Assembly (NCBI GenBank): GCA_048940645.1
Contig: JBHLOI010000001.1
Location: 64,001-128,000, forward strand
Source of the DNA: Promethearchaeota archaeon
GTDB taxonomy: Archaea > Asgardarchaeota > Lokiarchaeia > Sigyniarchaeales > SOKP01
Reading direction: 5' to 3'
Length of the DNA: 64,000 nucleotides
A model generated the notes under the pieces. The model did no database searches, was not told the origin of the DNA, and was given only the letters and a program-made list of their open reading frames with translations. Made by a program: the position numbers and the translations under genes. Every line of letters starts with the position of its first letter. Positions within the stretch are counted from its first letter, which is position 1. Shown here piece by piece: positions 5,524 to 56,321 of this stretch.

Positions 5524-5576
5524 GGATTTGTTGTATACTAACCTTAATTTAAATCATATTTTTTTAAATTATCGAT

Positions 5577-6578: not shown

Positions 6579-6760
6579 CGTTGAATTTCCATGAGTAAAA
6601 TTATAGATTCTTTAATTAATTATATATATGATAATCTTATTTAAACTATTTCTTAAATTCGCACGCAAATCTTAAAAAACAAGATAAATCAGCATTAAAA
6701 TTCAAATTTTCCGTTAAAAATAGATTACTTCAAAGTAGAATGAAACGAAACTGGTCTATT

Positions 6761-6786
6761 AATGATCAAAAACCTTAATTATGAAT
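6761..6786 (+). promoter_or_regulatory. Promoter block duplicated upstream of both SBP genes (copy 2)
   Basis: Identical to 3578-3603. Confidence 0.6.
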
Positions 6787-6815
6787 CTACCTAGTTATTA
6801 TTTTGCATCACTATA

Positions 6816-8636: not shown

Positions 8637-8734
8637 TACATCAAATAGCTAATAATTAGATAAATTGTTAAAATTAGATAAATCATTAAAATTTTTATAC
8701 TTAAAAGTGTAATTAAATAAAATCAGAGACTTCT

Positions 8735-14524: not shown

Positions 14525-15466
14525 CTAAATATTAAAGCCATCATCTAAATCATCATACTCCTCTTCAAATCTTTTTAATTCTTCCTCTTTAAGCTTCTTT
14601 TTAAGCTTTTTACGTTCCTTGTGAGTGTAATGCTCATCATAACGCTTAATGTACATTTTTTCATATCTCTCTCTGAGTTTCTCTACGCTTTCTACTTGTC
14701 CAATTTTATCTTGTAAATTATCTTCAAAAAACCAGTTTCTCTTAAACTCTTTTGCTGGAATACCTACATAAATCCATCCATACTTTAATTCTTGACCAAC
14801 CGTAGTGACTGAGTTTGCTGCTAATACACTACGCGTACCAATATGGGTACCTGGCATTACTATAGCATGGGACCCTATACGAACTTCATCTTCTATTATT
14901 GTTTTCCGAATAATAAGCAAATTTCCGATTATAACACTTGATTGGATAATAGCGCCTTGACCTACAACCACATTTTTTCCAAATTCCAAAAATTCCGTGT
15001 CACACCAGCCTTCAAATAAAGAATTAGAAAATTTTGTCTTAACTCCAAAAACCTTAAAACAAATATTATCTAAGAAGGGAAATGGAAATTTATGAGCTAG
15101 CCAAAAAGGAAACCTTTTTATGGTGCTTCTTATACTCCAATACCGATAATCTTTATCAGAAGGGTGCCTAAGAAATGTACCTTCGCGAGGTTTATGAATT
15201 GCATTCACAAATAAAAGAATGATTTTTGCAAAAAATATCGCTGAGAACACTGCTGTAACATACATTCCAAAACATAAAAGAGGTAAAAAGGTGTAAAAGT
15301 GAAGTGGTCTAATGTCATCCCATAACCATTGCCAATATGCCCAAAATATCAGTAAAAGTGGGATAATCGTCGCCCAAATAATTATTATATAAAAGATTAA
15401 ATATCTCTTTCTAACGAGAACCGTTGGTAAAAATGGTCCTACTCGCATAGTATTAGGTACAGACAT
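14525..15466 (-). CDS. 2-TM + LbH acyltransferase-like module, type C (Pls/PosA terminal-domain-like)
   Basis: TM hairpin, HKPREG...YWSIR, hexapeptide repeats (VVVGQGAII, IEDEVRIGSHAIVMPGTHIG), YVGIPA. Confidence 0.8.
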   Translation of the reverse strand: MSVPNTMRVGPFLPTVLVRKRYLIFYIIIIWATIIPLLLIFWAYWQWLWDDIRPLHFYTFLPLLCFGMYVTAVFSAIFFAKIILLFVNAIHKPREGTFLRHPSDKDYRYWSIRSTIKRFPFWLAHKFPFPFLDNICFKVFGVKTKFSNSLFEGWCDTEFLEFGKNVVVGQGAIIQSSVIIGNLLIIRKTIIEDEVRIGSHAIVMPGTHIGTRSVLAANSVTTVGQELKYGWIYVGIPAKEFKRNWFFEDNLQDKIGQVESVEKLRERYEKMYIKRYDEHYTHKERKKLKKKLKEEELKRFEEEYDDLDDGFNI

Positions 15467-15472
15467 GGTTAC

Positions 15473-17350
15473 TCACTCCTCTTTAGTTTTTACTAATTTC
15501 TTTTTCTCCTCTTCAATATTTACTTCATGTTCCATTTCAAACTTTGTGGACTCATCCACATCTCTTTTTATAATAAGATCCCTTCTTTCTTCAGCATACT
15601 TATTTTCTTTTAGTTTTATTGCAGGGATACCAAAATAAATCCAATTGGGTTCTAAAACTTGTTTGAATGCAGTAGTAGAGATTGCTCCCACTACAGAGTC
15701 GTGTCCCATAATTGTTCCTGGGGCAACTGTAGTATGCCCTCCTACTAGAACAAAATCATCAAACATCACCCTTTTTATTACCAAATATTTGCCCACAACC
15801 ATAGAAGACATAATTGTAGCTCCTTGACCTATCAAATTTTTCCTCCCAAAATCTATAAATTCTCCATCACACCATGCATCATTAAGATGACTCGAGAAAT
15901 CCATACTTATGCCAAACCATCTGAATGCTAATGCATCTATCCAAGGAAGCGGCGAATTTCTCAAGAGCCATAAAGTTATCTTTTTTAATTCAGTACGCAA
16001 CATCCAAAATTCATAATCGGTATCTCCAATTTGTGCTAAAAATGTACCCTCTTTGGGTTTATGAATAAGATTTACAAGGATTAATATTAATTTACTGAAA
16101 AGTAATATTCCTAAAATAAACAAATATAACATAGAAATAAGGGCGATAGGAAGAAATATAATAGAGCTCAGTTTTACACCCTCCATCGAATATCCATACC
16201 AATATATCGCAACAAGAAGACCACTTAACCAGAAAATTGGGAGATAAACCACTAAGAATTTTATATTAATTCTACTAATAGCACTACTCGTTGTAAAATC
16301 TAAAGCTAAATCTTCATTTGTTAAAGTTGACACATCCTTATATTCAATTTCTTCACTAATATCAATATCTTCCTCGATATCCTCTTCTTCTTCCTCCTTT
16401 TCTTCTTTTATTTCTTTTTCTTCATCATCCTCTTTTGCCTTACCTTTCTTCTTTTTTATATACATCTCTGGATTTTTATTTTTCCTTATATCTTCTTCAC
16501 TTAAACCTAGCCAACTCATTGTCTTTTTCTTAAAAATCTTACGCATAGGAATTCCAAAATAATAATTATGATTTCCTTTAATAACACTATGTTTGGTGCA
16601 AGAAGCTAGGGGTAGCATATAGGCTTCATTAGATATTTCAGATCCTGGACCAATCTGATTCATAGAAGCAAGAGTTACATTATTACCAAGATGAATCTTA
16701 AAATGATTAATATTTCCAAATATTCCAGTGAGAAGATGACTTGCTAAGGTAGAATTAACACCAATATAGCAATTTTTACCAACATCGATAAATTTATCAG
16801 AACCTACGGATTCTTCTATAGTAGTTCCTTTTCCTATTTTACTCGTTCCAATAAATTCATAGAACCAAGTTGATAACCAAGGAAATAAACCTTTAGAAAA
16901 CACATTTTTTCCATACTTTAATATAAAACTTCTTAAGTGGTAGTAATTAGCTGTTTTAGAACGAATATTTCTTGGAATAATTCCATCTTTAGACGGTGAG
17001 ATTTTTTCTGTTATTTTCCAGAAAATTTTAGTAATAATTCCAACAAGGAGTAATCTAACATAATATCCAATGATTAATACTAAAGGCATTGCAAATAATG
17101 CCATTAATGGCTTAATTTCAGTAAATATTGCGAAAAAATTTGTAATATCTAAAAAATAGGGTTTAAAAATGAGAAGTACATATGAGAAGAATATAAATCC
17201 AGGTATTAACCACGAACCATAATAAATTATAAAAAATAAAATAATGTATAGATGAAATTGGAGACTTTGTTCTTCCTTAACGAATTCTTCTCCAGTTTTA
17301 TTATCTGAATCTTCACTGTTTTTTGAATCTTCAGACATTTTTATCATCAA
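15473..17350 (-). CDS. Fusion of two TM+LbH modules (types A+B), Pls/PosA terminal-domain-like
   Basis: Two TM+hexapeptide units joined by a K/E/D-rich linker; each ends in YFGIP. Confidence 0.8.
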   Translation of the reverse strand: MMIKMSEDSKNSEDSDNKTGEEFVKEEQSLQFHLYIILFFIIYYGSWLIPGFIFFSYVLLIFKPYFLDITNFFAIFTEIKPLMALFAMPLVLIIGYYVRLLLVGIITKIFWKITEKISPSKDGIIPRNIRSKTANYYHLRSFILKYGKNVFSKGLFPWLSTWFYEFIGTSKIGKGTTIEESVGSDKFIDVGKNCYIGVNSTLASHLLTGIFGNINHFKIHLGNNVTLASMNQIGPGSEISNEAYMLPLASCTKHSVIKGNHNYYFGIPMRKIFKKKTMSWLGLSEEDIRKNKNPEMYIKKKKGKAKEDDEEKEIKEEKEEEEEDIEEDIDISEEIEYKDVSTLTNEDLALDFTTSSAISRINIKFLVVYLPIFWLSGLLVAIYWYGYSMEGVKLSSIIFLPIALISMLYLFILGILLFSKLILILVNLIHKPKEGTFLAQIGDTDYEFWMLRTELKKITLWLLRNSPLPWIDALAFRWFGISMDFSSHLNDAWCDGEFIDFGRKNLIGQGATIMSSMVVGKYLVIKRVMFDDFVLVGGHTTVAPGTIMGHDSVVGAISTTAFKQVLEPNWIYFGIPAIKLKENKYAEERRDLIIKRDVDESTKFEMEHEVNIEEEKKKLVKTKEE

Positions 17351-17464
17351 TTTATTATATTGCGATCTACTAGTAATAATGTTTTTAATCTTTACTTAAA
17401 ATTTCTATTTTATAGTTTTATAGATATATTTGTTATCTTTTAAAGTTATATTATTAACAATTTC

Positions 17465-17908
17465 ATGGATTTTTTTGTGTCTATAATTAAAATATCAGTA
17501 ATTATCATGAATAAAATAAAGCAAATTTGTAAAGATTGCGGAAAGTGTTGCCAAAAAACAGAAATGCTATTATCAGAACAAGATATTTATTTAATTGAAG
17601 AAAAAATTTCAAGTATAAGAAGAGATGAATTTACTGAATTGAATGAAAATGGGATTTATCAATTAAAAAATAGAAATAATCACTGCATATTCTTAGATAT
17701 TGCATCTAAATTATGTACTATATACAAATTCAGACCACAGGGCTGCAGATTCTATCCTATTATTTATGATAATGAGAAAGAAATTTGTATTTATGATGAA
17801 GAATGCCCCAGAGTCTCTTCTTTTTATTTAGTACTTAAAAAGTTTAAAAAAACATGTAATGATATTAAGAAATTTATCAAGATGGAACTAAAAATAGAAT
17901 TTTCCTGA
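17465..17908 (+). CDS. YkgJ-family CxxCxxCC cysteine-cluster protein
   Basis: CKDCGKCC...CIFLD...CTIY..RP..CRFYP; start probably at MNKIK. Confidence 0.85.
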   Translation: MDFFVSIIKISVIIMNKIKQICKDCGKCCQKTEMLLSEQDIYLIEEKISSIRRDEFTELNENGIYQLKNRNNHCIFLDIASKLCTIYKFRPQGCRFYPIIYDNEKEICIYDEECPRVSSFYLVLKKFKKTCNDIKKFIKMELKIEFS

Positions 17909-17911
17909 GAT

Positions 17912-18919
17912 TTAAAATGTCAGAATAGTTTTGATATGATCTTTACTATTTCTATATGAAGTAAAAGCTTCACTAATCCTTTCTAAAGGAAATTTTTTTG
18001 AGATTAAATCTTTTACTTGGATATTTCCTGATTTTAGGCCGTCTATTGCTTTGTTAAATGGACCACATCTACTAGTATATATTGTAATTTCCCGTACAAC
18101 CAAATCTGTGAGATTCACGGGAGTATCTAATCCATGGGTGCTTTTAATATGAATTTTTCCCCTAGTTCTACATGAAGCAATAATATCTGAAAATACATTC
18201 GGATTTCCAGTAGCATCCACAACGATATCTGCACCTAATCCCTTTGTAATTTCCTTAATTTTATTAGGAATATTCTTTACTTTTAGGCGATTTATCAAAT
18301 GTCTTGCACCAAATTTTTTAGCTAATTCAAGTTTTTTATTCGAACCATCTACTACTATTAAATCTAAACCCATTAATAGAGCAACTTGAACTATTAATAA
18401 ACCTAATTTTCCAACTCCAAAAATAACCATATTAGTATCATTATGACTAATAGGCATTGTCTCAAATATCTGATAAGCCGCAGCTAAAGGTTCAATAAAG
18501 GTAGCATCATTAAATGAAATCGAATCAGGTATCTCATGTATTAAGTATGACTCAGCAGTAAGAAATTCTGCGAATCCGCCATTGATATCAATACCTATTG
18601 CTTTTCTCGATAAACATTGAGTAAACATATCTCTCCTACAGTAATAACAATTAAAATCTATATTGCTGTTAATTTCAGACACAACTCTTCTTCCTAACCA
18701 TGAGTTTTCGACATCTTCTCCGACTTTTACAACCTCACCAGCTATTTCATGTCCCAAAATAAGTGGAGTTGGTATTGGAAGAATACCCTTGACAATAGCT
18801 AAATCTGTACCACATATTCCCGCAGCTTTAACCTTAATCAATACTTGAGATTTAGTAAGCTCTGGGATTGGAACTTCTTTCACATTAATCGCTTTTCCAT
18901 CAAATACAGCTGCTTTCAT
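17912..18919 (-). CDS. Zn-dependent medium-chain alcohol dehydrogenase
   Basis: GICGTD, GHE, GGFAE, EPLA, GVGKLG. Confidence 0.92.
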   Translation of the reverse strand: MKAAVFDGKAINVKEVPIPELTKSQVLIKVKAAGICGTDLAIVKGILPIPTPLILGHEIAGEVVKVGEDVENSWLGRRVVSEINSNIDFNCYYCRRDMFTQCLSRKAIGIDINGGFAEFLTAESYLIHEIPDSISFNDATFIEPLAAAYQIFETMPISHNDTNMVIFGVGKLGLLIVQVALLMGLDLIVVDGSNKKLELAKKFGARHLINRLKVKNIPNKIKEITKGLGADIVVDATGNPNVFSDIIASCRTRGKIHIKSTHGLDTPVNLTDLVVREITIYTSRCGPFNKAIDGLKSGNIQVKDLISKKFPLERISEAFTSYRNSKDHIKTILTF

Positions 18920-19136
18920 AAATAATATAAATAAATTTAGAATTTTTTAAATATTAATAAAACACAATGACATAAATATGCTCAACCAAAATCATAATTT
19001 TGAAATTATAAGATCCAAGTAATCTACTCAAATTATCAATAGCAATTTTACAAAAAAAATTTATGAGTCCTAACCAGTTTTAATATATTTCTTGGTTCCT
19101 TTAATTCAAGTAATAAATTAACAAATAAATTGTGAT

Positions 19137-19679
19137 TTGATGAATAAAAAAGTTTTAATTTGGGAGATTATCGGCATAGTTTTTATTATATTTCTAGGTT
19201 CATTCATGCATTTTCTTTTTGAATTAACAGGATCTTGGCCGCCTATTGGTGCTATAGCAGCAGTAAATGAAAGTACTTGGGAACACTTGAAATTAGGGTA
19301 TTGGCCCTTGATGTTCTTTGCTTTAATTGAATATAAGTTTATAAAAGAAGAGGTTAATAATTTTGCGCTCGCTAAATTTGTGGGCTCCTTATTGATTTTT
19401 GGAGTTATTATCATCTTTTTTTATTCTTATACAGCCATATTAGGAGAGGATTTATTAATACTTGACATATTTAGTTTTATACTTTCAATAATCATAGCTC
19501 AATTAGTAAGTTATAAAATTTTAACAATTAAAAGGCTAAAAAATAGTGTTTCTATCATATCATTGGTTGGACTCGTAATTCTGGGATTGTTATTCATACT
19601 ATTCACCTACTTTCCTCCACAGATATTCCTTTTTCAAGATCCTGTATCTGGTGGCTATGGAATAGTAGAACATCTCTAA
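19137..19679 (+). CDS. Membrane protein (DUF6512-like)
   Basis: MHFLFE...VNESTWEHLKL...FFYSYT...PP..LFQDP. Confidence 0.7.
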   Translation: MMNKKVLIWEIIGIVFIIFLGSFMHFLFELTGSWPPIGAIAAVNESTWEHLKLGYWPLMFFALIEYKFIKEEVNNFALAKFVGSLLIFGVIIIFFYSYTAILGEDLLILDIFSFILSIIIAQLVSYKILTIKRLKNSVSIISLVGLVILGLLFILFTYFPPQIFLFQDPVSGGYGIVEHL

Positions 19680-19793
19680 TTCAATTTAACTTTTTCTTCT
19701 TTTACTTTTTTTTAACTAAATAGTTATAAACTTAATTTATAAAATTCAAAAAATTAACATAATACAGGAAATTTATTTTAAAAAGTCGATTTT

Positions 19794-21449
19794 ATGAAAT
19801 GTTTTGATTTTGATGAAAGCGTTCAAAAAATATTAAATGATTCTTTTTCTGATATTGAACCTACAAACTGGAAGAGGTGGTTAGAAGTTTCATCCAGTGA
19901 AGAGTTTGAAGAATTATGTTTAAAAAACTCTGGATTATCTTCTATAAATGAAATTTTTAAAAGGGCAACTTCTGAAATTACAGATTCAAGAAGTTTTTCT
20001 ATTAATTTGGAAAATTTTCTTTCTGATTATAACCATTCTTATACTCCAATACTGTGTCATACATCAGGAACAACTGATAGTAAGATTTCAGCTCTTAAGT
20101 GGTTCTTTATGTCAAAAAGTGTAACTCAAAAAAATTGGGCTCCAGGTATGCAAGCTATATTCGAATCAAGCGGATTAGATTCTAAAACTTCTGCTGTAAT
20201 TTTTGTTCCTTCAAGGATTAAATTAGATGGTTTACAATATTTTGAAGGACAAGCATATATTTCACTTTATTCCTCTGAATTTTCTCAAAGAGTAATGCTT
20301 TCAATCATTAAACCAAAAAATTACTCTTTTTATGAATATAAAAATTCTAAAAGTATAGATGTAATCTCTAAAATTTTAGATTTGGATGATATTCGTGTTA
20401 TTTCTGCTCCTGCTTTAACAATTTTAGGATGGGCTGATTTAGAAAAGCTTAGATTGCGATTACAAAAAGCTCTTGATGATTTACCAGATTATAAAAATCC
20501 AATATTAGAGAATCTAATTTCGATAATTAAAAAAGAAGGTATACAAAAAGCATCAAAAATTATTCAAGAAAAACTTTCAGAAAAATTGTCTAAAGCTACA
20601 ATAATATTTAGCATAAGTTCCCTTTCAGAACAGAATTGGGATTTAATAAGGAGGTTTATGAAATGGGAAAAAGGAGAAGAAAGATTTACTAATCTTTATG
20701 TAGCATCTGAGATTGGACCTTTCGCATCTAGTATCTCTAAAGAAGACTTCGAAATATCACGTCAAAATAGGCTGTATGTTTTTCCTTTGACATTACCTGT
20801 TATAGAACACCATAACAAAAAAGAATTAATTTCTCGAGCTTCAAATCAAACAGGCAAGCTATTAGTGTCAAGAATGGATGGTTCTAACGCTCTAATTAAT
20901 ATTGATTTAGGTGATATTATTACTATAAAAGAAAATTATGGATTGCCGCAAATAGACGGAAAAATCATACGATCGAGCTTTAAATTAAAATATGACCTCA
21001 AGTTATCTGAAAAATTTACTATACCTTTCGATTATAGCATTTATGCTGGTGATTTTTTCTCTCTAAACGAATTTATAATTAATCAGCCAAGGAACTTAAT
21101 TAATTGCTTAAAAATTGCTTGTAATTTGGAAGTTGATGCGTTATTATTATTAAAGAATAATAAACAGTCTTGGGATCTAGTATTTCCATCTAATATTCAA
21201 GAAAATTGTAAAAGAAAAGAAAGATTAATAGAATTAATTTCTTCATGTCCGCATCAGGAGGAACTTACTCAAGTAATTATCAATAATTTAATCAATATCG
21301 ATTTTATTGATGATCAGCCAGTTGACTTCTTAGCTACGCGATCAGAAATATTAAATAAAGTTCGTGAAGGACAAGCACCTAAAGGCATATTGAAAAAATG
21401 GCCTTTATATGTAATTATTCCTGACAGCGATGAGAATACCCTTATATAA
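19794..21449 (+). CDS. Adenylate-forming enzyme, ANL superfamily (GH3/PaaK-like)
   Basis: P-loop HTSGTT..K, YVASEIG, and IDLGDII motifs. Confidence 0.65.
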   Translation: MKCFDFDESVQKILNDSFSDIEPTNWKRWLEVSSSEEFEELCLKNSGLSSINEIFKRATSEITDSRSFSINLENFLSDYNHSYTPILCHTSGTTDSKISALKWFFMSKSVTQKNWAPGMQAIFESSGLDSKTSAVIFVPSRIKLDGLQYFEGQAYISLYSSEFSQRVMLSIIKPKNYSFYEYKNSKSIDVISKILDLDDIRVISAPALTILGWADLEKLRLRLQKALDDLPDYKNPILENLISIIKKEGIQKASKIIQEKLSEKLSKATIIFSISSLSEQNWDLIRRFMKWEKGEERFTNLYVASEIGPFASSISKEDFEISRQNRLYVFPLTLPVIEHHNKKELISRASNQTGKLLVSRMDGSNALINIDLGDIITIKENYGLPQIDGKIIRSSFKLKYDLKLSEKFTIPFDYSIYAGDFFSLNEFIINQPRNLINCLKIACNLEVDALLLLKNNKQSWDLVFPSNIQENCKRKERLIELISSCPHQEELTQVIINNLINIDFIDDQPVDFLATRSEILNKVREGQAPKGILKKWPLYVIIPDSDENTLI

Positions 21450-21471
21450 GAAAAAGAAGGAAAAAATGAAT

Positions 21472-21873
21472 TTATTGCCAAACGGCTAGAATTAAACCTG
21501 CGATTATGAATCCAATCAAGTAAAACCCATATTCTAATAGAAAAAGCTTTACTCCTCTATCATTAAAATTATTTTGGTTAATTCCTATAGTTGCAACAAA
21601 TCCTACCCATAAAAGGAAACTTATTATTAAAGCTGATAAAATATCATTCATACCAGTGAGATCAATGATAACCTCAATCATTAGAACTGACACAAAACTC
21701 GTTGGAATCATTATAATAGTATCTCTAATAATTTTTGATTTGGGTTCACTCTCTTTACCAACTAATTTGAGCCATATGTTTCCAAACACAAATGGAAAAT
21801 ACCAGAAAAAGTGAATCAGAAAATAAATAATTGCAACCACGATAACAGCTAACCAATTAATCATCAAAGCCAT
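21472..21873 (-). CDS. DUF1761-family membrane protein
   Basis: INWLAVIV...FWY...FG..W. Confidence 0.75.
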   Translation of the reverse strand: MALMINWLAVIVVAIIYFLIHFFWYFPFVFGNIWLKLVGKESEPKSKIIRDTIIMIPTSFVSVLMIEVIIDLTGMNDILSALIISFLLWVGFVATIGINQNNFNDRGVKLFLLEYGFYLIGFIIAGLILAVWQ

Positions 21874-21977
21874 TTATTTTCACTTTTTAAATTATAATTT
21901 GTAATTAAAAGGAATATAAATGAACGATATTTATTTCTTATTTGTTTAAATTATAAATTACAATAAGTGGATTACAC

Positions 21978-22451
21978 ATGAAAGATAAATTTAATTTAGT
22001 GGGAACAAAAATAAAACCATTTAAATTACCAAACTCGAGAGGCGAAAGTAATAGCATTCAGGACTTTTTAGGTCATAGTGTAGTAATTGTTTTGTTCCGG
22101 AGTAAAAATTGACCCTATGCTAAAGCCCATGCAGGAAAACTCGGTGATGATTACGATAAATTCAAAGAATATAATGCAATATTATACACAATCTTACCAA
22201 ATGATCTTGAAAGTGCTAGGAATTTTGAAGCCAATTTTGCCAAAAAAAAATTTCCAATTTATTATGATGCCACAAAAAAGGTAAATAAAATGTTAAAACA
22301 GGAAGTAAAACCTTTAAAACTGGGTAGAATGCCAGCACTTCTCATAATCGACGAACAAGGGATTATTAGATATGCATATTACAGTGATTCGATGAGTGAT
22401 ATACCAGACAATGAGGAAATTTTTGAAGTTCTCAAAAGTTTTAGTAAATAA
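21978..22451 (+). CDS. Peroxiredoxin-like (AhpC/TSA, thioredoxin fold) protein with in-frame TGA at 22110-22112, probable selenocysteine
   Basis: Manual translation: MKDKFNLVGTKIKPFKLPNSRG...VVIVLFRSKN-U-PYAKAHAG...FPIYYD...MPALLIIDEQGIIRYAYYS...DIPDNEEI...*, 157 aa; the full-length ORF is absent from the ORF track. Confidence 0.8.
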
Positions 22452-22454
22452 ATC

Positions 22455-22527
22455 TGATTTGGTTCGAATAATATATGAAAAATGATTGAATTTTATTCGA
22501 TTAAGTTAGCCACACTTTACCAAATCA
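22455..22527 (+). other. 3'-UTR hairpin downstream of the Sec-candidate gene (candidate SECIS-type element)
   Basis: TGATTTGGT/ACCAAATCA outer stem, TCGAATAA/TTATTCGA inner stem, loop containing ATGA-AAAA-TGA. Confidence 0.35.
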
Positions 22528-22571
22528 ATCTATTTTTATTTATTTATATTTTGTCTTAGATGAATTACGGA

Positions 22572-24713
22572 TTAATATTTAAATTTTCTTCTGATGGGAA
22601 TCATGGAAATGAAACTTGCTATCGCAAGTAAAATGAATAGACTATTAATTATAATAATCGGAGCACTAATTTCTTTTATAACTGTAACCTCGGCAAAAGC
22701 AACATTACCTGCTTTATCTAATACATAAAATAAGATATTAATTGGACCATTTCCATATTTATTCCATTCAGTTTGGTCTATTGTTCCAGTGTTACTGAAT
22801 AATGGGATATTGGTTAATCCGTTATCTAATGTATACCATATTGAATCTAAATTCGATTCGATTATTGTAATTTCAAATATAGGAGGTTTATTTCCAAATA
22901 CTTCATTTTCATTAGGAGAAATAATAGTAACGGTTGGATTAATTAGATCTTTTATAACTGTTACTTCAGCAAAAGCAACATTACCTGCTTTATCTAATAC
23001 GTAAAATCTAAGATTGATTGTCCCATTACCATATTTATTCCATTCTGATTGGTCAATAATTCCATTAAGTAAACTATTTGATATATTCGTTATTCCATCA
23101 TCTAAAGTGTACCACATTAAATCAATATTAGATTCTATTACAGTGATATCAAATTCAGGAGATGTTTTACCGAACAATTCATTTTCAAGTGGAGAATTTA
23201 TTGTAATGAGTGGTTCTATTGTGTCTTTATTAATAGTAATTTCAGAATAACTTGAATTTCCCAATGTGTCATTAATATAAACTCGAAGATTCAGAGGGCC
23301 ATCCTCTTTTTTATCCCATTCTATTTGATCTATAGTTCCTGTTAGCCCTGAGAAAGTAATATTAGTAATTCCTCCATCAATAGTATACCAAGTAGTATCT
23401 ATTGAAGTTCCATAAATTGATATATCAAAATCGGGTGCAACATTACCAAAAACATCATTTTGAACAGGAGAATTTATCATAATTGTTGGCGTTAGCAAGC
23501 TTTTAACAACCAGCTCATATGGATATGGTTGATCATTGACATTAGGATCAAAATCGGAAGGAAGTCTCCTATACATAAGATATTGTCCATCAGGGGAATA
23601 AATTGGAAACTCATCGTTATATGGACCTATTTCTGTTAGTGGGACAATGCCAGTGCCATTCGTTTTTATCCTAAATAAATGCATATTGCCATCTAAACGG
23701 TTACTTGCCATTATCAGCTCCTTCCCATCGATAGGATTGTAATTCCACCGTCTGTTAAAGTATACATCATCAATAACTGTTCTTTCATTGCTCCCATCTA
23801 TATTAATTGCATATATACTCCCATTACTATGCCATATAACTGTATTTCCATCCGCTAATACTAGGGTCTGAGTTCTCTTCGAAAAAGATTTAATTGTATT
23901 CCGCTCTGAACCGTCTACATTGCATACCCTGAGAGTGGTAGGATTATTCCAATATGTTGCATGCCCCCATAAAAGCTTACTACCATTTGGGGCCATTCCT
24001 AATGTAAATGAATAATCGGGATAGGATCTGTCTTGCCAATTATCGGTACCGTCATCATTACAAACATATGATCTGTACCATCCATTACCGTTATGAGCAG
24101 AAAAATATACTAGATTTGTTCCTGGAATAAACATTCCAGTGTATACCGTTCCTTCATTTATCCATAAAGGATTCGATGATGTTGTTCTTATTCCATTAGT
24201 ATGAGTAAACGTAACCTGAGTGAGAGAGGTTCCATCAAATCTTATTTTCCAGAGTTCTCTCCTTCCATAGTACGAACTTGCGCTAGCTTCCTCAAATCTT
24301 ATTGAGAAAAGAATCCAATTATCTTTCCAATCATATAGACTATTATAAGCTGCCCCAGTATATATCAGTTGGTGGTTCGTGAGTTGTGCGCTGTTAGGAT
24401 TTTTGTCGGCAACCCAGAGTTCACAGTTCCATACCTGTTGATTTTGAGATTTTATATATGCTACTTTGGTTCCATCTGGTGACCAAATATGATCAGAAAT
24501 AGTCTCCCCAATTATGTATTCATTTGATCCCTTTACTTCTAAATTAGGATGAGTGCTAATATTTAGATTTCCTTGATCATTACTAAAGTCTATAATAAAA
24601 ATAAAGGAGAATCCTAAAATGATGCCTAAAATAGAAGAAATTATCTTCTTTTTTTGGTTAATTTTTCTCAATTTGGTTTGTTGAAAAATATGGATTATAA
24701 TATATTTTGTCAA
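22572..24713 (-). CDS. Cell-surface protein: TolB-like beta-propeller + three ~92-aa Ig-like repeats + C-terminal TM anchor
   Basis: WSPDG/YSPDG PD40 repeats; 3x P.I.I.SP..N..FG...P.F.I...WYT.D.G.TN..GN; hydrophobic tail + RRKFK. Confidence 0.85.
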   Translation of the reverse strand: MTKYIIIHIFQQTKLRKINQKKKIISSILGIILGFSFIFIIDFSNDQGNLNISTHPNLEVKGSNEYIIGETISDHIWSPDGTKVAYIKSQNQQVWNCELWVADKNPNSAQLTNHQLIYTGAAYNSLYDWKDNWILFSIRFEEASASSYYGRRELWKIRFDGTSLTQVTFTHTNGIRTTSSNPLWINEGTVYTGMFIPGTNLVYFSAHNGNGWYRSYVCNDDGTDNWQDRSYPDYSFTLGMAPNGSKLLWGHATYWNNPTTLRVCNVDGSERNTIKSFSKRTQTLVLADGNTVIWHSNGSIYAINIDGSNERTVIDDVYFNRRWNYNPIDGKELIMASNRLDGNMHLFRIKTNGTGIVPLTEIGPYNDEFPIYSPDGQYLMYRRLPSDFDPNVNDQPYPYELVVKSLLTPTIMINSPVQNDVFGNVAPDFDISIYGTSIDTTWYTIDGGITNITFSGLTGTIDQIEWDKKEDGPLNLRVYINDTLGNSSYSEITINKDTIEPLITINSPLENELFGKTSPEFDITVIESNIDLMWYTLDDGITNISNSLLNGIIDQSEWNKYGNGTINLRFYVLDKAGNVAFAEVTVIKDLINPTVTIISPNENEVFGNKPPIFEITIIESNLDSIWYTLDNGLTNIPLFSNTGTIDQTEWNKYGNGPINILFYVLDKAGNVAFAEVTVIKEISAPIIIINSLFILLAIASFISMIPIRRKFKY

Positions 24714-24809
24714 GTTAATATTTAAATTTACTTTCAGAAATAAAAAAGATTAGAGATTAGGAATTTCCTCTTGATGAGAAGTTGACTAAATATAACTATT
24801 TTTAATTTT

Positions 24810-25331
24810 TTAAGTGGATTTTAACCCTATTGACGGTCCTACTTGTATGAATTTATATATAAGTTGACCTTCCCCATTAAATACATCCCAACCTTTATTA
24901 CTTTCAAAACCATGTGCAGATAAAAAATTTGTTGAAAATTTGCTCCTTGCAGACTGTACCATTTGATTAATAACCTCTATTTTCATTTCTTTATTTTCAA
25001 CTAATTCCAATTTACCCTGCATTGAAATAAAATAATAACTGCTAAGATCTGGTTCAAATTTTTCTATTGAAATGCAAACATTAGGGTTATTTGAAAGAAT
25101 TTCCTTCTTTTTGCCATAATCAGTAAAATGAAAATATAAAATATCATCAATAAAAGCGTATTGGAAAGGTGAAATATATGGATATTCATTATCTATGAAA
25201 GCAATTCTACATAAATTTTGAGAATTGATTGCTTCTTTTATCTCTCGTTCATTCATTTTTGGTAATTTAATAATTCTAATACTTAACACCAATTTGATTT
25301 TAATGGGATAAAAAACGTGGATCATATTCAA
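24810..25331 (-). CDS. Pyridoxamine 5'-phosphate oxidase/NimA-like flavin-binding protein
   Basis: LCRIAF...YPYISP..Y...LYFH...GKK......NPNVC; true start lies downstream of the uvsE stop. Confidence 0.8.
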   Translation of the reverse strand: MNMIHVFYPIKIKLVLSIRIIKLPKMNEREIKEAINSQNLCRIAFIDNEYPYISPFQYAFIDDILYFHFTDYGKKKEILSNNPNVCISIEKFEPDLSSYYFISMQGKLELVENKEMKIEVINQMVQSARSKFSTNFLSAHGFESNKGWDVFNGEGQLIYKFIQVGPSIGLKST

Positions 25332-26196
25332 GAATTTTTTTTGCTTTTAAAGCACTCCGTTCTTTATCTTTTATTTCTAACATAAGGTCAAAATCATAAT
25401 TTTTTGTTTTATTAATAAAGGTTTTAAAATGCTCGATTTGAATATTATCAGCATGACTTGGATGTCCTTTTATTTTATGTTGAGAGCTATAGTGTACGAT
25501 AGGCAAGCCATCTCGTTTATTCCATGTTTGTGTGAATTTGCTGAATACATCTTCAAAAATCTCACCTGTATTTAAACATTCATGATGATAAACATCAAAA
25601 ACAATAGGAATAAAAATTTCTTCATAAATTTCTAGACAATCTGCTAAATTAAAACTTTTATCATCATTTTCAATAACATATCGATTTTTAATTTTAGCTG
25701 AAAGCTTATTATATCTCTCAATAAATCTTTCTTTACTTCCCTTTTTATCGCCATAAATCCCCCCAATATGGGTCATAATTTTAGCTGTACAATCTAAATT
25801 CATTAAATCTAAAACATCAACATGATATTCCAACTCCTTTATACTTTTCTTAACAACCTTATCGTTTTTAGAATTTAGTACCGTATATTGGCCAGGATGC
25901 ATAGAGATTCTCATATTATACTTCATAATAAATTTCCCTATTTCATTAAACTTTTCTTTGAAGTAATCTTGCCATTCAAATTTCATAATAGGATGAGATG
26001 CAAATGGTATTAAATCAGATGTAAGTCTAAAGAAAAAAATTTTGTTATTTTTATTATATTCAAGAATCTGTTGTAAACAGTTTAAATTTCCATTTACAGT
26101 TTCAATAAATCTTTCTTCGGAATAATTTTTCAAACGAAAAGTTCTACTACTTTTGCATGCTAATGTAAGGTTTATGCAAGGATAACCTATCTTCAT
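25300..26196 (-). CDS. uvsE: UV DNA damage endonuclease
   Basis: MKIGYPCIN, FFRLTSDLIPFASH, RISMHPGQY, IENDDK, VFDVYHH, HYS, HAD, MLEIKDKE. Confidence 0.95.
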   Translation of the reverse strand: MKIGYPCINLTLACKSSRTFRLKNYSEERFIETVNGNLNCLQQILEYNKNNKIFFFRLTSDLIPFASHPIMKFEWQDYFKEKFNEIGKFIMKYNMRISMHPGQYTVLNSKNDKVVKKSIKELEYHVDVLDLMNLDCTAKIMTHIGGIYGDKKGSKERFIERYNKLSAKIKNRYVIENDDKSFNLADCLEIYEEIFIPIVFDVYHHECLNTGEIFEDVFSKFTQTWNKRDGLPIVHYSSQHKIKGHPSHADNIQIEHFKTFINKTKNYDFDLMLEIKDKERSALKAKKILEYDPRFLSH

Positions 26197-26247
26197 TATA
26201 TCTCGATCTTAAAATTAAATAATTAAAATAGAAATTCTTTAATTCAT

Positions 26248-27090
26248 TCACACTTTTTTATCTTTTCGCCTTGTATAGAGTTCTTCATATTTCTTTCGTA
26301 ATTCCTCTATATCTTGCTCTTGTTCACTTATTATCTCTTCCAATCCATCTTCAAAGAACACATCTTCCTTATATTTTTTTGCCGGTGCGCCGAGATAAAC
26401 CCAACCTTCTTCTAATTCTTGACCAATGGTTGTGAGAGAACTAGCAGCAAGAACTGAATTCTTCTTCATATATGTTCCTGGCATTACAACTGAATGAGCA
26501 CCAATTCTAACATTATCTTCTATTATTGTTTTTCTAATTATAAAGAGATTTCCGATAATGACTGTAGATTGAATAACGCTAGCTTGGCCAACTACAATAT
26601 TCCTTCCAAAATCAATGAATTCAGTATCAACCCAGCCTTCAAATAGTGAGTTTGAAAATTTTGTTTTAACCCCAAACAATTTAAAGCAAATGTTATCTAA
26701 GAAAGGTAGGGGGAATTTATGTGCCATCCATGCGGGCCACTTTTTAATTGTATTTCTAATACTCCAATATCTATAGTCCTTATCGGATGGGTCTCTAAGG
26801 AAGATTCCTTCCCTTGGTTTGTGAAAGATATTCACAATAATGAGTAGAATTTTAGTAAAAAACAGAGATACAAATACTAAAGAGAGATATATTACAAATA
26901 TCAAAGCGGGAAGGAAAATTATGAAATGGATAAATTTACTGTTATATAAGAAGTTCCAATACCACCAAAATTCAAATTGGATAATAAAAATACTGATCCA
27001 AATCTGGAATATATAAAAAAGCAAATATTTTTTTTTTACTAATACATTAGATGTAAACGGCCCAGCTTTAAGATATGCAGGAACAGACAT
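26248..27090 (-). CDS. TM+LbH module, type C (paralog of 14525..15466)
   Basis: MSVP..GPF, HKPREG.FLR.PSDKDYRYWSIR, FGVKTKFSNSLFEGW.DTEF. Confidence 0.8.
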   Translation of the reverse strand: MSVPAYLKAGPFTSNVLVKKKYLLFYIFQIWISIFIIQFEFWWYWNFLYNSKFIHFIIFLPALIFVIYLSLVFVSLFFTKILLIIVNIFHKPREGIFLRDPSDKDYRYWSIRNTIKKWPAWMAHKFPLPFLDNICFKLFGVKTKFSNSLFEGWVDTEFIDFGRNIVVGQASVIQSTVIIGNLFIIRKTIIEDNVRIGAHSVVMPGTYMKKNSVLAASSLTTIGQELEEGWVYLGAPAKKYKEDVFFEDGLEEIISEQEQDIEELRKKYEELYTRRKDKKV

Positions 27091-27995
27091 TATAATTCTT
27101 CCTCCTTATTGTTATTTACTAGTTCTTTCTTATCATCGTCTATATTAACCTCATGTTTAATTTCATATGTAATTTCTTCTTCAACATCCTTGATAGTTAT
27201 TTTATCACGTCTTTGTTCTGCATATTTATTTGGTTTATATTTCATGGCAGGGAGACCAACATATATCCAGCCTGGCTCAATAAAATGGTTAAAATTTGTA
27301 TTAGTAAATGCACCCGTTACCGATTCGGCTCCCAAAAATGTACCTGGTGCTATATTAGAAACACCTCCAGCAACGGTATAATCTCCAAATATGACCTTTT
27401 TTATTATTAAATATTTCCCAACAACCATTGAACTCATCACTACGCAACCTTGACCAATCGTAACATTTCTTCCAAAATCAATGAAATCAGTATCTACCCA
27501 TGCATCTTGAAGGTGGCTTGAGAAATCTATTTTAACTCCAAACCATCTAAATCCCCACATAACAATCCAAGGTAATGGGCTATTATTCATAAGCCATAAT
27601 GCCAACTTCTTTAATTCGACTCGTAGTCTCCAAAACTCAAAATCTTTATCTCCTTTTTCCGCCCTAAAAACACCTTGCCGAGGTTTATGTACCATATTAA
27701 CGATTAATAGAAATGCCTTGCTAAAAATAGCAACTCCAAAGATAAATATAAAATATAAAATAAATAACCAAAATGGTAGTAGAAACATAGTTATAATCCA
27801 ATTGTCAATAAGAGTAGCTACATCAAAAAAAACAGCAACTGCCATATATCCACTAACCCATAGAATTGGAATATATATAGCTAGAAATTTGATGCTAATT
27901 CTGCTAATAGCACTACTAGTTATAAAATCTATAGTATAGTCCTTCTTATTAACTTGAAGATCTTTGCTTTTTTCTGTTGGATTGCTACTAGTCAT
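27090..27995 (-). CDS. TM+LbH module, type B (stand-alone)
   Basis: DF.TSSAISRI.IKFL, DFEFW.LR.ELKK, MSSMVVGKYL; equals the C-terminal half of the AB fusions. Confidence 0.8.
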   Translation of the reverse strand: MTSSNPTEKSKDLQVNKKDYTIDFITSSAISRISIKFLAIYIPILWVSGYMAVAVFFDVATLIDNWIITMFLLPFWLFILYFIFIFGVAIFSKAFLLIVNMVHKPRQGVFRAEKGDKDFEFWRLRVELKKLALWLMNNSPLPWIVMWGFRWFGVKIDFSSHLQDAWVDTDFIDFGRNVTIGQGCVVMSSMVVGKYLIIKKVIFGDYTVAGGVSNIAPGTFLGAESVTGAFTNTNFNHFIEPGWIYVGLPAMKYKPNKYAEQRRDKITIKDVEEEITYEIKHEVNIDDDKKELVNNNKEEEL

Positions 27996-28890
27996 TTACT
28001 CTCCCTCTTTGTTTTGAATTTTTCTCAATTTTTTTAATTTTAAGCTTTTCTGCTCTCTCAAGATCTTTTTCAGACACTTTTAAGTAATCCATCAATCGTT
28101 TTTTAAAAATCCGTCTTAATGGTGCTCCAAAATAGTAATTATTACCTTTTAAGAAGTTATGTTTAGTTGCACCTGTTATAGGTAAAAACCAAGAATTATC
28201 ATTTACTTCACTACCAGGGCCAATACAATTGAAAGCCGCTGTAGTGACATTATTTCCAATCTTTACTTTAAAATAAGTTATATTTCCAAAAATTCCTTCA
28301 ACAGCATGGGAACTGAAAGCGCCATTTACCCCAAAATAACAATTATTTCCTATTGAAATATATCTATCTGCACCAACATTCTCTTCGAGGGTTGTTCCCT
28401 TTCCTATCCAATTAGCTCCTATGAAATTATAAAGCCAATTTATTAGCCATGGAAAAGGTCCTCTTATAACAGCGTTTTTCGGATATTTAATTACAAAACT
28501 ACGTATATGATAGAAATTTAAAGTTTTACTGGGAACATTTCGAGGGATTATACCATCTTTGGATGGTGATATTTTTTCAGTGGTCCTCCAAATCCATCTT
28601 GTAATCAGCCCTACAAACAAAATATGAATTAAATAACATGACACTATTATTAAAGGCATAAAAATTGAAGCTAAAAGAGGTTCTAATTGTGTGAAGAGTA
28701 ATATAAAATTGCTGATATCTAAAAAATTTGGTAAATAAAAAAGCATGACATATACCATAAATATAATCGCGGGGATTAGAAAAGACCCGAAATAAATAAT
28801 GAAAAATAAAAATAAATACCAATGAAACTGTAAATTGATTTCTTCTTTTATGATTTCGTTATTGGTACTACTTTCAGATGAATTTTCCAT
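27988..28890 (-). CDS. TM+LbH module, type A (stand-alone)
   Basis: SPSKDGIIPRN, IGKGTT.EE.VG, GVN...SSH..GIFGNI; equals the N-terminal half of the AB fusions. Confidence 0.8.
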   Translation of the reverse strand: MENSSESSTNNEIIKEEINLQFHWYLFLFFIIYFGSFLIPAIIFMVYVMLFYLPNFLDISNFILLFTQLEPLLASIFMPLIIVSCYLIHILFVGLITRWIWRTTEKISPSKDGIIPRNVPSKTLNFYHIRSFVIKYPKNAVIRGPFPWLINWLYNFIGANWIGKGTTLEENVGADRYISIGNNCYFGVNGAFSSHAVEGIFGNITYFKVKIGNNVTTAAFNCIGPGSEVNDNSWFLPITGATKHNFLKGNNYYFGAPLRRIFKKRLMDYLKVSEKDLERAEKLKIKKIEKNSKQRGRVND

Positions 28891-29074
28891 CTTCTATTTC
28901 ATTAATGCTTATTTAGTTAAAATGTAATAAGTAGAATTACTTTTGTTATTTTCAGTGGTTCTTTAATTATTATGACTATTGAATTTAAAGATTATCAAAC
29001 ACTTGATTTTAGGAATAATATAAATATAAAAAATAAAAGTTTAAATATTATTTTTTATTAATTTTTAAAATTCA

Positions 29075-29920
29075 TTATGATTTCTTTTCTTTTTTAGGAA
29101 ACCAAGGGATAAATGAGCTAGTTCTTCTTTTATATTCAGCATATTCTTCATTACCTTCAAATCTTTTATCTAGAAGTTTTACACCAGATACATTTATTAT
29201 TTGAAATGTAATATAAGCTGGTCCTATAAAGGTTAAAAAGCCAAATGGAACTGCCAAAGCAATTATAAAAAGACCCCACCATTGAGTTACTTCTCCAAAA
29301 TAGTTTGGATGCATAGAATATTTCCATACGCTCTTCGTCATAATTTTTCCTTGATTTGCTGGATCCTTTAAGAATTTATAAAGAGAAAAGTCTGCTATAG
29401 TTTCAAAGAAAAATCCTATCAGCCATATAATGGCTCCTAACCATAAAGTTATTCCTCCAAAGTCTAATAGGCTGACTACAGGAGGATTTTCACTTATGTT
29501 TGTAAACCAAACTGGAATATCAACTAAAAAAACAATAATTCCTTGAAACATATATACTTTGAAGAAACTTTTCAAAGCTACATTTGTTTTCCATCTTTCT
29601 CGCATTGCTTTATAACGATAATCTTCAGGTTTTCCCCTATTCCTAATATATACATAGCTTGCTAATCTTATTGCCCAAACTAAAACTAGGCTAGTTGCTA
29701 TAATTTGCCGAATACAAAAAGATGATGTTAGTATTATATTAAGGATTAAACTCGTTATAGACACCACAAAATAAGCAGGACCATAAAAAATATCCATAAT
29801 TGCATTATTCTTCTTTACGGTTCCTACAATGAAAGCAATAAATATGTAAATAAAAAGAGCTATAGCTGAATAACCAATTATTAATAACATAGTCTCAATA
29901 TTTGTCATAATAAAGCACAA
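29075..29920 (-). CDS. DUF1295 / steroid 5-alpha-reductase-like membrane protein
   Basis: EDYRY, FQG, ETIAD..L..F, WKYS.HPNYFGE...WWG, Y..Y...TS.FIPW.P. Confidence 0.88.
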   Translation of the reverse strand: MCFIMTNIETMLLIIGYSAIALFIYIFIAFIVGTVKKNNAIMDIFYGPAYFVVSITSLILNIILTSSFCIRQIIATSLVLVWAIRLASYVYIRNRGKPEDYRYKAMRERWKTNVALKSFFKVYMFQGIIVFLVDIPVWFTNISENPPVVSLLDFGGITLWLGAIIWLIGFFFETIADFSLYKFLKDPANQGKIMTKSVWKYSMHPNYFGEVTQWWGLFIIALAVPFGFLTFIGPAYITFQIINVSGVKLLDKRFEGNEEYAEYKRRTSSFIPWFPKKEKKS

Positions 29921-30008
29921 TTAAACTGTAAGATTATAATAACTAGTCAGAAAATACGAGAATATTTATAGTTTGTATTTATTAATTAAAGATTTTTATA
30001 AATAGGTT

Positions 30009-31829
30009 CTAAAGCTTTTCCTTTTTATCTTCTTCAATATTTACTTCATGCTCTACCTTAAATTTAACCTCTTCGTCAACATTTTTTTTCATGATAATAT
30101 CTCTTCGGGATTCAGCATATTTATTTGGCTTTAATTTAATTGCAGGAATTCCTATATAAATAAAGCCAGGTTCCAAAATTTGGTTATAAGTTGTGGTTGA
30201 GATGGCTCCTACCATTGTATCTTTTCCAACAATAGTACCTGGAGCAATAGTGGTATGTCCTCCAACAAGAGCATAATCATCAAGAAATATTTTTGAAATT
30301 ACGAGATATTTCCCTACAACCATTGAACTCATCAAGGTTGCACCCTGACCCACAACAACCTTTCTCCCTAAGTATAAAAATTCTCCATCACACCATGCAT
30401 CATATAAATAGCTCGAGAAATCCATTTTTATTCCAAACCATTTGAAAGCAATGACATCTGCCCATGGAATGGGGCTATTTCTCATGAGCCATAAAACAAT
30501 TTTTTTTAATTCAGTACGCAACATCCAAAATTCATAATCAGTATCTCCTATCTCAGCCAGAAACGTACCCTCTTTGGGTTTATGAATTAAATTAACCAAA
30601 AGTAGAAAAAGCTTGCTATATAAGAAACATCCAAGGATAAAAATAAAATATAATGCAAATAATATAACTGGTAAAAAAAAAGTAAACATAATCAGATTTT
30701 TAACGAAAAATGTGTAGGTATAAAATAACACTGCTACTTGTAACCCGCTTATCCAAAAAATGGGTAGATAAACTGCTAAAAATTTTATATTTATTCGACT
30801 TATAGCTGAGCTAGTTGTAAAATCAAGATTATAATCTACATTTTCATATTCAATTGCATTTTGTTCATTCACTTTTGGTTGGTTTGAATCTACTTCTTTT
30901 TTCTCTTGCTTTCTTTTAGTTTTTTTATTCTTATTTTTAGACTTCTTAACTTCGATATTTTCTAAAAGAATTTTATTTTTCTCTAAATCCTCAGGAGTTA
31001 AATCTAAATATCTCATAACTTTTTTATCAAAGATTTTCCTTAAAGGAATACCAAAATAATAATGATGATCTCCCTTTACAACATTGTGTTTAGTAGCGGA
31101 CGCTAAAGGTAAGAGATATGAATTACTATGAATCATTGTACCAGGTCCAATTTGATTATTTCCCGCAATAGTAATATTATCACCAGCTTGTATTTGAAAA
31201 TATGAAATATTCCCCCATACTCCGTCTATTAAATGTGTAGCTAATGTAGAATTAACTCCGATATAACAATTTTTTCCGACAATTGCGAACTTTTCGTTAC
31301 CAACAGATTCTTCAAAAGTGGTCCCTTTTCCAATAACCATTGAACCTACATAATTATATAACCAATTTGATAACCATGGAAATAATCCTTTAACAAATGT
31401 ATTTTTAGGATACTTCATAAGGAATGATCTTATATGATAATATTTCTCAGTTTTGCTTTTAATATTCCGGGGGATTATTCCATTTTTAGATGGTGATTTA
31501 CTTTCAGTATAAGCCCATATTATACGTGTGATTAAAGCAATGAAATATAATCGAATAAGATAACATACAATTAAAACGAGTGGCATTGTAAGTAAAGCCA
31601 TCAAGGGTTCGATTTCTGTAAAAATTGCTATAAAATTAGAAATTTCAAGGAAGTTAGGTAAAAAATATAAGAAAAAGTATAACATAAAAACTGTGATTGG
31701 TACTAAAAATGAACCTAGATAATTTGTTAATAATATCATAAATGATAATATCAGGGAATAACTCATTTCTTCCCTTTGAACTTCAGGTTTTAAAATTTTG
31801 GATGCTTTGCTTTTTTTTTTCGAATCCAT
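30009..31829 (-). CDS. Fusion of two TM+LbH modules (types A+B), second copy
   Basis: Colinear with 15473..17350, Lys-rich linker. Confidence 0.8.
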   Translation of the reverse strand: MDSKKKSKASKILKPEVQREEMSYSLILSFMILLTNYLGSFLVPITVFMLYFFLYFLPNFLEISNFIAIFTEIEPLMALLTMPLVLIVCYLIRLYFIALITRIIWAYTESKSPSKNGIIPRNIKSKTEKYYHIRSFLMKYPKNTFVKGLFPWLSNWLYNYVGSMVIGKGTTFEESVGNEKFAIVGKNCYIGVNSTLATHLIDGVWGNISYFQIQAGDNITIAGNNQIGPGTMIHSNSYLLPLASATKHNVVKGDHHYYFGIPLRKIFDKKVMRYLDLTPEDLEKNKILLENIEVKKSKNKNKKTKRKQEKKEVDSNQPKVNEQNAIEYENVDYNLDFTTSSAISRINIKFLAVYLPIFWISGLQVAVLFYTYTFFVKNLIMFTFFLPVILFALYFIFILGCFLYSKLFLLLVNLIHKPKEGTFLAEIGDTDYEFWMLRTELKKIVLWLMRNSPIPWADVIAFKWFGIKMDFSSYLYDAWCDGEFLYLGRKVVVGQGATLMSSMVVGKYLVISKIFLDDYALVGGHTTIAPGTIVGKDTMVGAISTTTYNQILEPGFIYIGIPAIKLKPNKYAESRRDIIMKKNVDEEVKFKVEHEVNIEEDKKEKL

Positions 31830-55489: not shown

Positions 55490-55729
55490 AGCAGAGAACT
55501 TTTCTATACTTTTTTGTCTTAATATAATTGATAATAAGTAAACTTAAAAATCTTTCATCTCAAACTTGAAATGGCTCATAATATAAGACCAATTTTAATA
55601 ATTTTAATTTAATATTAGCATATAACAAATTTTATGAGCTTAGATTATAATTAGTACAATTCTTTTACTAAATAGGTAATTTCATTAAAATAAAATATTT
55701 TTCTTCCATCTATGAGATAGTAGCACTCA

Positions 55730-56266: not shown

Positions 56267-56321
56267 GAACTAAATGGATAAGTAAATTTAAATATTTTTG
56301 GAAATAGAATTAACCATTTTC

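Follow-up and report, generated by a model that had tools for sequence, protein, structure and literature searches.

What is made by six neighbouring archaeal genes that repeat one membrane-anchored unit eight times? The question is raised by a stretch of 64,000 nucleotides from the genome of a Promethearchaeota archaeon, a member of the Asgard archaea (assembly GCA_048940645.1, contig JBHLOI010000001.1, positions 64,001 to 128,000), which is called the window throughout. Two gene clusters in it encode proteins built of transmembrane (TM) hairpins and left-handed beta-helix (LbH) domains, and their units are of three types, named A, B and C. They are probably the subunits of a heterotrimeric, membrane-anchored LbH acyltransferase, in which there would be one active site per trimer and type A would carry out the catalysis. 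The sequence-only reading that was followed up here had proposed a membrane heterotrimer equivalent to the terminal region of epsilon-poly-L-lysine synthetase (Pls) and its relative PosA. The genes concerned, together with one that lies between the clusters, are the following (aa, amino acids; HMM, hidden Markov model).

15473..17350 (-): first AB fusion, 625 aa, in which a charged linker joins a type-A to a type-B unit; it belongs to the '(AB)n-C' operon class
14525..15466 (-): type-C unit, 313 aa, with a long charged C-terminal tail; 524 bits with the custom C HMM
30009..31829 (-): second AB fusion, 606 aa, upstream of DUF1295-A-B-C
29075..29920 (-): DUF1295 membrane protein of the steroid-5-alpha-reductase/ICMT-like superfamily, encoded between the second AB fusion and the separate A, B and C genes
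27988..28890 (-): separate type-A unit, 300 aa; its invariant H195 aligns with His115 of LacA
27090..27995 (-): separate type-B unit, 301 aa, with Ser at the His position
26248..27090 (-): separate type-C unit, 280 aa, with Ser/Thr at the His position
19794-21449 (+): conserved protein of 551 aa between the two clusters, with a TSGTT..K-like motif

The six unit genes encode eight units of a single plan, a TM hairpin with an LbH. In each unit, two hydrophobic helices are followed by a K-P/S-x-(E/D)-G motif, then by a helical region, and lastly by hexapeptide repeats with Y-x-G-x-P at their end; hexapeptide Pfam matches are present in every one of the six proteins. When the eight units were compared all against all by BLASTP, the identity within a type was 51-58% for A, 52-68% for B and 61% for C. 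Between types, B and C share 35-39%, and A shares 18-24% with B or C (E 1e-9 to 1e-17). The similarity among the eight units is far beyond chance. Profile-profile comparison also finds A homologous to B and C from the second TM helix through the beta-helix, with a probability of 98.7-99%. The count of six genes, eight copies and three types, as first read from the sequence, is therefore borne out by the coordinates, the translations and the BLASTP comparison.

All seven genes of the two clusters are co-directional on the minus strand, and the open reading frames (ORFs) were recovered at the coordinates listed, with translations free of stops. The layouts are [AB fusion]-C (17350-14525) and [AB fusion]-DUF1295-A-B-C (31829-26248). 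The first AB fusion starts at TTG, with an ATG a few codons further downstream; it scores 472 bits with the custom A HMM and 497 bits with that for B, and a gap of 6 nt separates it from its downstream C gene. The second AB fusion has no type-C gene of its own. The overlapping stop and start codons that had been described for the split genes are present, as the start of B overlaps the stop of A by 8 nt (ATGACTAG) and the start of C overlaps the stop of B by 1 nt (TAATG). A sigma-70 promoter scan gave no excess over chance; its bacterial consensus is not meaningful for an archaeal host.

The types are set apart by one position. When all units are aligned, (S/T/N)-H is found in each unit of type A where the loop following the third coil begins, and this His and its adjacent residues are invariant in type A across all the operon classes described below. 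Using HMMER, the invariant His of the A profile was found to align with His115 of E. coli LacA (1kqa), the catalytic base of that enzyme. All B and C units, along with the 'X' units of a sister family (f2) described further below, have Ser, Thr, Gly or Cys in this column. As the His is kept in A only, an ABC ring would therefore have one competent site.

The fold was modelled with AlphaFold2 for the AB fusion 30009-31829, using an alignment of 118 rows to which single A, B and C units were added block-wise. The model reached a mean predicted local distance difference test (pLDDT) score of 84.8 and a predicted template modelling (pTM) score of 0.80. A shallower run with 41 close homologues, in which pLDDT was 57 and the A-type LbH remained unfolded, was discarded. 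In the retained model, each unit is made up of two long helices (36-39 residues), one strand, a pair of short helices and a beta-helix, and the linker between the A and B units is disordered. The pTM of the two-unit chain implies that A and B are predicted to hold a fixed mutual arrangement. Counts of Lys and Arg place clusters of these residues at the N-terminal flank and after the second TM helix, so that both flanks of the hairpin lie inside; the beta-helices are therefore predicted to face the cytoplasm.

The soluble part of the B unit (residues 414-573 of the AB fusion) superposes on whole maltose/galactoside O-acetyltransferases, with a VIA Z of 12.2-12.5. The superposition aligns 150 residues at a root mean square deviation of 2.9-3.1 Å and spans residues 1-185 of those chains, including their N-terminal helical element; Foldseek gives E 2e-6 for the same match. 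The likeness to LacA and Maa extends over the N-terminal helices and the LbH fold (Z 12.5, about 150 of 185 residues), and the type-A His falls on LacA His115. These enzymes are trimers that have their active sites at the subunit interfaces and use a coenzyme A (CoA) thioester as donor. Unlike the Asgard units, which carry a TM hairpin and are of three kinds, two of them without the His, LacA and Maa are soluble homotrimers with three active sites. No solved chain in the PDB matches the TM hairpin and the LbH as a whole.

That A, B and C belong together is suggested by their distribution in relatives. A type-C query returned more than 700 proteins; those with names all come from metagenome bins of Asgard archaea, where their annotation is no more than hypothetical or 'DapH/DapD/GlmU-related'. 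Further, a B-profile search was made of 1.84 billion representative proteins, and the matches were typed with the custom A, B and C HMMs. Gene order was compared in 48 related loci, 32 from species-representative genomes and 16 more, and the cyclic order A>B>C>A is unbroken in 48/48. Three operon classes can be told apart. The first is DUF1295-A-B-C, with separate genes and a short C; the second has one to three AB fusions and then a single long-tailed C, '(AB)n-C'. The third, [CA]-B, was found through the B-profile search and confirmed in ten more loci; in it, a separate B gene comes after a CA fusion of some 540 aa. Natural fusions among the confidently typed units are AB (at least 39), CA (at least 12) and CAB (P0130, 797 aa; P0133); no BA, AC or CB fusion was met among the confidently typed units of relatives. 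The cyclic order and the restriction to AB, CA and CAB would arise because a ring of three different subunits puts the end of each unit beside the start of the next.

The numbers agree with this. A whole-genome census with the A, B and C profiles gave 4A:4B:4C, that is four sets, in each of two 100%-complete genomes, 4A:4B:3C in this genome and a congener, and 6A:6B:5C in one other; the one-fewer C always matches an extra AB fusion. A maximum-likelihood (ML) tree of 75 units shows the same internal subclades in each of the three type clades, and whole sets must therefore have been duplicated together. Order, fusions, the 1:1:1 census and the parallel subtrees mark the three types as obligate partners in a single complex, so the heterotrimer of the sequence-only reading gains support in this respect, while its equivalence to the Pls terminal region does not, as will be seen. 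The synteny that had been asked about across Asgard genomes was found, the cyclic order being kept and the types not being scattered independently. That the order is always A-B-C is true of the window and, if the order is taken as cyclic, of all the related loci, but the same genome also has a dispersed fourth set.

This fourth, more divergent set lies outside the window and consists of two adjacent B/C-like units (contig C47:23487-25166) and a lone A-like unit (C60:44255-45067). The first unit of the C47 pair retains the His at the catalytic position and the second is without it. Other basal Asgard relatives likewise still have the His in their B/C-like units, and the dispersed arrangement was also seen in other genomes of the window's family.

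The following mechanism may be proposed. Each unit would sit in the membrane by an N-in/C-in hairpin of two long TM helices and, through short helices and a strand, would hold a maltose/galactoside-acetyltransferase-like LbH on the side of the cytoplasm. The trimer would be formed by single A, B and C units packed around a pseudo-threefold axis, as in LbH trimers and in the C1-C2-C3 model of PosA, and this packing would create a six-helix bundle in the membrane. A alone would provide the catalytic His, equivalent to His115 of LacA, with B and C as non-catalytic partners. AB fusions that lack a C gene of their own would take up a C subunit from a gene in the vicinity. The acyl donor would most likely be acetyl- or acyl-CoA, judging from the fold family and from the fact that no carrier protein was found. 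The acceptor is probably associated with the membrane, such as a lipid or lipid-linked glycan, or else something that is passed through the helix bundle.

How close, then, is this system to Pls? The profile TIGR02353, which describes the Pls/PosA terminal domain, is the best or near-best NCBIfam match of the B and C units (22-42 bits, E 1e-9 to 1e-11), and the match spans profile positions 7-226, the TM region included. Type A alone has no TIGR02353 match at E<=1. The best scores, 42.4 bits in the window and 51.5 bits in the genome, do not reach the curated cut-off of 423.1. In the AlphaFold model of PosA, six bent helices and three LbH domains are packed as in the trimers of sugar-nucleotide acyltransferases (PMC10522769). 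The AlphaFold2 secondary structure of the Asgard unit, a long pair of TM helices with short helices and an LbH after it, agrees in architecture with that model (PMC10522769). The PDB holds no structure of a Pls/PosA terminal domain, and Pls is represented there by its adenylation domain only.

The same picture was obtained when modules were compared directly. The hhalign scores within a lineage are 158-197 for Pls modules, 379-424 for the modules of bacterial stand-alone three-module proteins and 118-442 for the Asgard types, as against 57-99 between Asgard and Pls. In the tree of 75 units, a split with 100% support places all Asgard units on one side and all modules of Pls and of the bacterial proteins on the other. 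A clade of His-bearing modules is rejected by the approximately unbiased (AU) test, which was run under LG+G4 on 37 rows (delta lnL 116, p 2.7e-10). A one-to-one orthology of A, B and C with C1, C2 and C3 was considered and is ruled out by hhalign, the tree and the AU test. The His itself occurs only in module 3 (LQTHL, 9/9) in nine proteins of the Pls/PosA family, and only in module 2 (M2) in the bacterial proteins. Since modules group by lineage in all three analyses, the threefold differentiation and the reduction to a single His therefore came about independently in the Asgard units, in Pls and in the bacterial stand-alone proteins, each of which was left with one His-bearing module.

On profile evidence, then, the Asgard units are to be regarded as true but remote homologues of the Pls/PosA terminal modules, with the homology including the TM region. 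The layout of the Asgard system is like that of the Pls terminal domain, yet it is not a member of that family. Both are assembled from three different units of TM hairpin, short helices and LbH; in both, one of the three units bears the His (module 3 in Pls), and the catalytic side faces the cytoplasm. The Asgard units differ in that they are without adenylation and thiolation domains and are divided among two or three genes, where Pls has a single chain. The system is also archaeal and multi-copy, and no carrier protein or phosphopantetheinyl transferase (PPTase) was found in the genome. Three tandem modules in one chain were not met in the window, where the arrangement is AB + C or A, B, C, and the CAB fusion was seen in relatives only. 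The earlier claim of equivalence to the Pls terminal region is not upheld, as the scores (at most 51 bits against 423) and the lack of orthology with C1/C2/C3 speak against it.

The question of what is transferred brings in the first of three other explanations. In a Pls-like polymer synthase, the ring would polymerise an activated monomer, an aminoacyl or hydroxyacyl thioester that is provided in trans, and export a polyamide or polyester through the six-helix bundle. The shared layout with the Pls/PosA terminal domain, including the one His-bearing module in three, speaks for such an enzyme, but we consider it unlikely. No AMP-binding or PP-binding domain was detected by Pfam or NCBIfam in the seven proteins, so the absence of adenylation and thiolation domains from the A/B/C genes, which had been noted before, is confirmed; the 11 AMP-binding genes of the genome are all located elsewhere. 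Neither PP-binding (PF00550) nor PPTase (PF01648) members were found in this 89.6%-complete genome, the control genomes being positive. The proposed search for a carrier protein and a PPTase thus gave no backing to a polymer synthase. Further, the Asgard units are not orthologues of C1-C3, and their closest folds are small-molecule O-acetyltransferases.

A supplier in trans could be sought in the 551-aa protein between the clusters, which has the TSGTT..K-like motif, is syntenic in 15 loci and has one language-model lead to a cluster with 24% GH3 and 14% AMP-binding members. It may be a very divergent adenylate-forming enzyme. At E<=1, however, it matches nothing in Pfam, NCBIfam or the PDB, and it is present in 25/40 genomes of the window's family (f1), 0/3 of f2 and 3/6 of an unrelated Asgard family without the LbH system. 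Considered as the missing adenylation domain, the 551-aa protein is rejected as an obligate partner on account of this lack of a family match and the mismatched phyletic pattern.

Other evidence leads towards CoA. The best NCBIfam match of the A unit is heptaprenylglyceryl phosphate O-acetyltransferase (E 8e-14, in the AB fusion). A three-module TM+LbH domain is fused to a fatty-acyl-AMP ligase and carrier in P0127 (2251 aa, Centaurea solstitialis assembly) and to a short-chain dehydrogenase (SDR) in P0223 (960 aa, metagenome); thus, this domain is not confined to amino-acid polymerases. Together with the nearest folds, which are CoA-dependent O-acetyltransferases, the NCBIfam match and these fusions point to acyl transfer from a CoA thioester to an acceptor at the membrane and not to the polymerisation of amino acids. 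As no carrier or PPTase was found and the 551-aa protein is not co-distributed with the system, a heterotrimeric membrane acyltransferase that depends on acyl-CoA is preferred to a Pls-like polymerase. Of the two functions originally put forward, polymer synthase or acyltransferase, the former is left unsupported and the latter fits better.

The DUF1295 protein matches PF06966 over the full profile (positions 1-235 of 235; E 9e-61, 205.8 bits against a gathering cut-off of 20.4), with PF02544 as a second match (E 7e-8). DUF1295 precedes the split A-B-C in 10/32 related loci. Its steroid/polyprenol-reductase-like superfamily and its place in one operon class fit an isoprenoid-lipid context, but it occurs in only about a third of the loci. 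It is tempting, though speculative and not to be expected, to picture the ABC rings as Asgard-specific membrane polymerase/exporters or lipid-modifying machines, which would use CoA-activated monomers without a carrier to build or decorate a component of the cell surface or membrane that is specific to this Lokiarchaeial order, different AB/C combinations giving product diversity.

LbH enzymes are usually homotrimers, and A, B and C could each form one and merely be co-located, three independent enzymes in all; in basal relatives every unit retains the His, and these may be homo-oligomers. This appears improbable, given that the catalytic His is missing from B and C in all the sequences examined and that the cyclic order and fusion rules are strict, with the 1:1:1 census and the parallel subtrees pointing the same way. 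The AB fusion, too, is a chain of two different units (pTM 0.80). The least probable explanation is a non-enzymatic role as an LbH-ring scaffold, channel or sensor, comparable to the gamma-carbonic-anhydrase-like heterotrimer that sits on the membrane arm in plant complex I. In its favour, the His is missing from two units in three, and the PDB sequence matches of the C unit include the CA/CAL subunits of complex I (E about 1e-7). Against it, the His and neighbouring residues of type A are invariant across all classes, and in both fold and profile comparisons the top matches are active acetyltransferases.

Some points weigh against the heterotrimeric, A-catalysed acyltransferase as preferred here. 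The A+B+C assembly is inferred, and the packing of A with B was judged from pTM and not from coordinates. Little is learnt from the operon partners: DUF1295 is found with some of the operons only, and the genes conserved beside [CA]-B, which encode a nitroreductase and unknown proteins, give no clue to function. With the genome incomplete, the absence of a carrier protein is not proven. Lastly, besides A only a single B/C-like type was seen in f2, and the His is retained in some basal units; the stoichiometry and the number of active sites may therefore vary between sets.

The distribution of the system is narrow. At E<=1e-20, the C profile matches 40/40 sampled genomes of f1 and 3/3 of f2, a sister family of the same order, and none of the 158 genomes sampled from 25 further families in the phylum. 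More distant relatives with single or double units also occur under Asgard names, e.g., 'Helarchaeota'. In f2 (loci L043 and L044), only A followed by the 'X' type was seen, and in the ML tree X forms an unresolved trichotomy with B and C. This suggests a path from a homotrimer through A + X to A + B + C, with A + 2X as the ancestor of the ABC ring. Three to six sets are present in every sampled genome of one Asgard order and none in the sampled genomes of other Asgard families, which would make the system a lineage-defining membrane enzyme in the archaeal group closest to eukaryotes.

Two other known systems may be compared. The bacterial three-module proteins (Elusimicrobiota MBK8576353.1 = P0246; P0200, P0207 and P0227) also have the TM hairpin and LbH three times over, with the His in M2, and are without an amino-acid adenylation domain. 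They differ in being single polypeptides whose modules are mutually closer (hhalign about 380-420) than to any Asgard type, and they stand nearer to TIGR02353 than the Asgard units do (157-184 bits). The gamma-carbonic-anhydrase/CAL assembly of mitochondrial complex I is, likewise, a heterotrimeric LbH ring on a membrane complex with partly degenerate active sites, but its chemistry is that of a zinc hydratase, its subunits have no TM hairpin of their own, and only generic LbH similarity connects the two.

Full-text literature searches (TIGR02353; Pls with hexapeptide; Asgard with hexapeptide acyltransferase) returned no description of a stand-alone or split system of this kind. An LbH acyltransferase that combines a Pls-like architecture with a split, heterotrimeric, carrier-less and archaeal make-up is most likely new. 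A homotrimeric TM-hairpin LbH acyltransferase would then have turned into an asymmetric single-site assembly at least three separate times, in Asgard archaea, in Pls/PosA and in the bacterial stand-alone proteins, by gene splitting in one case and by fusion in the others. The split Asgard version may also offer separately expressible subunits for studying the Pls-type polymerisation domain.

Some neighbouring genes deserve mention. A CxxCxxCC gene (PF03692, YkgJ-like; 17465-17908, +) is divergent from the AB-C cluster and stands beside such clusters in 22/48 related loci. Genes for a zinc-dependent alcohol dehydrogenase, DUF6512 and DUF1761 near it are likewise syntenic; the synteny of this gene and its neighbours is perhaps merely inherited. 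Elsewhere in the window, a gene pair is duplicated in tandem at 3703-9736, consisting of a family-5 solute-binding protein of 606 aa (SBP_bac_5, +) and then an ORF of 333 aa (-), for which no Pfam match was found. Further along, at 53702-58109 (-), there are two paralogous ORFs of 595 aa, and behind each of them comes an ORF of some 177 aa.

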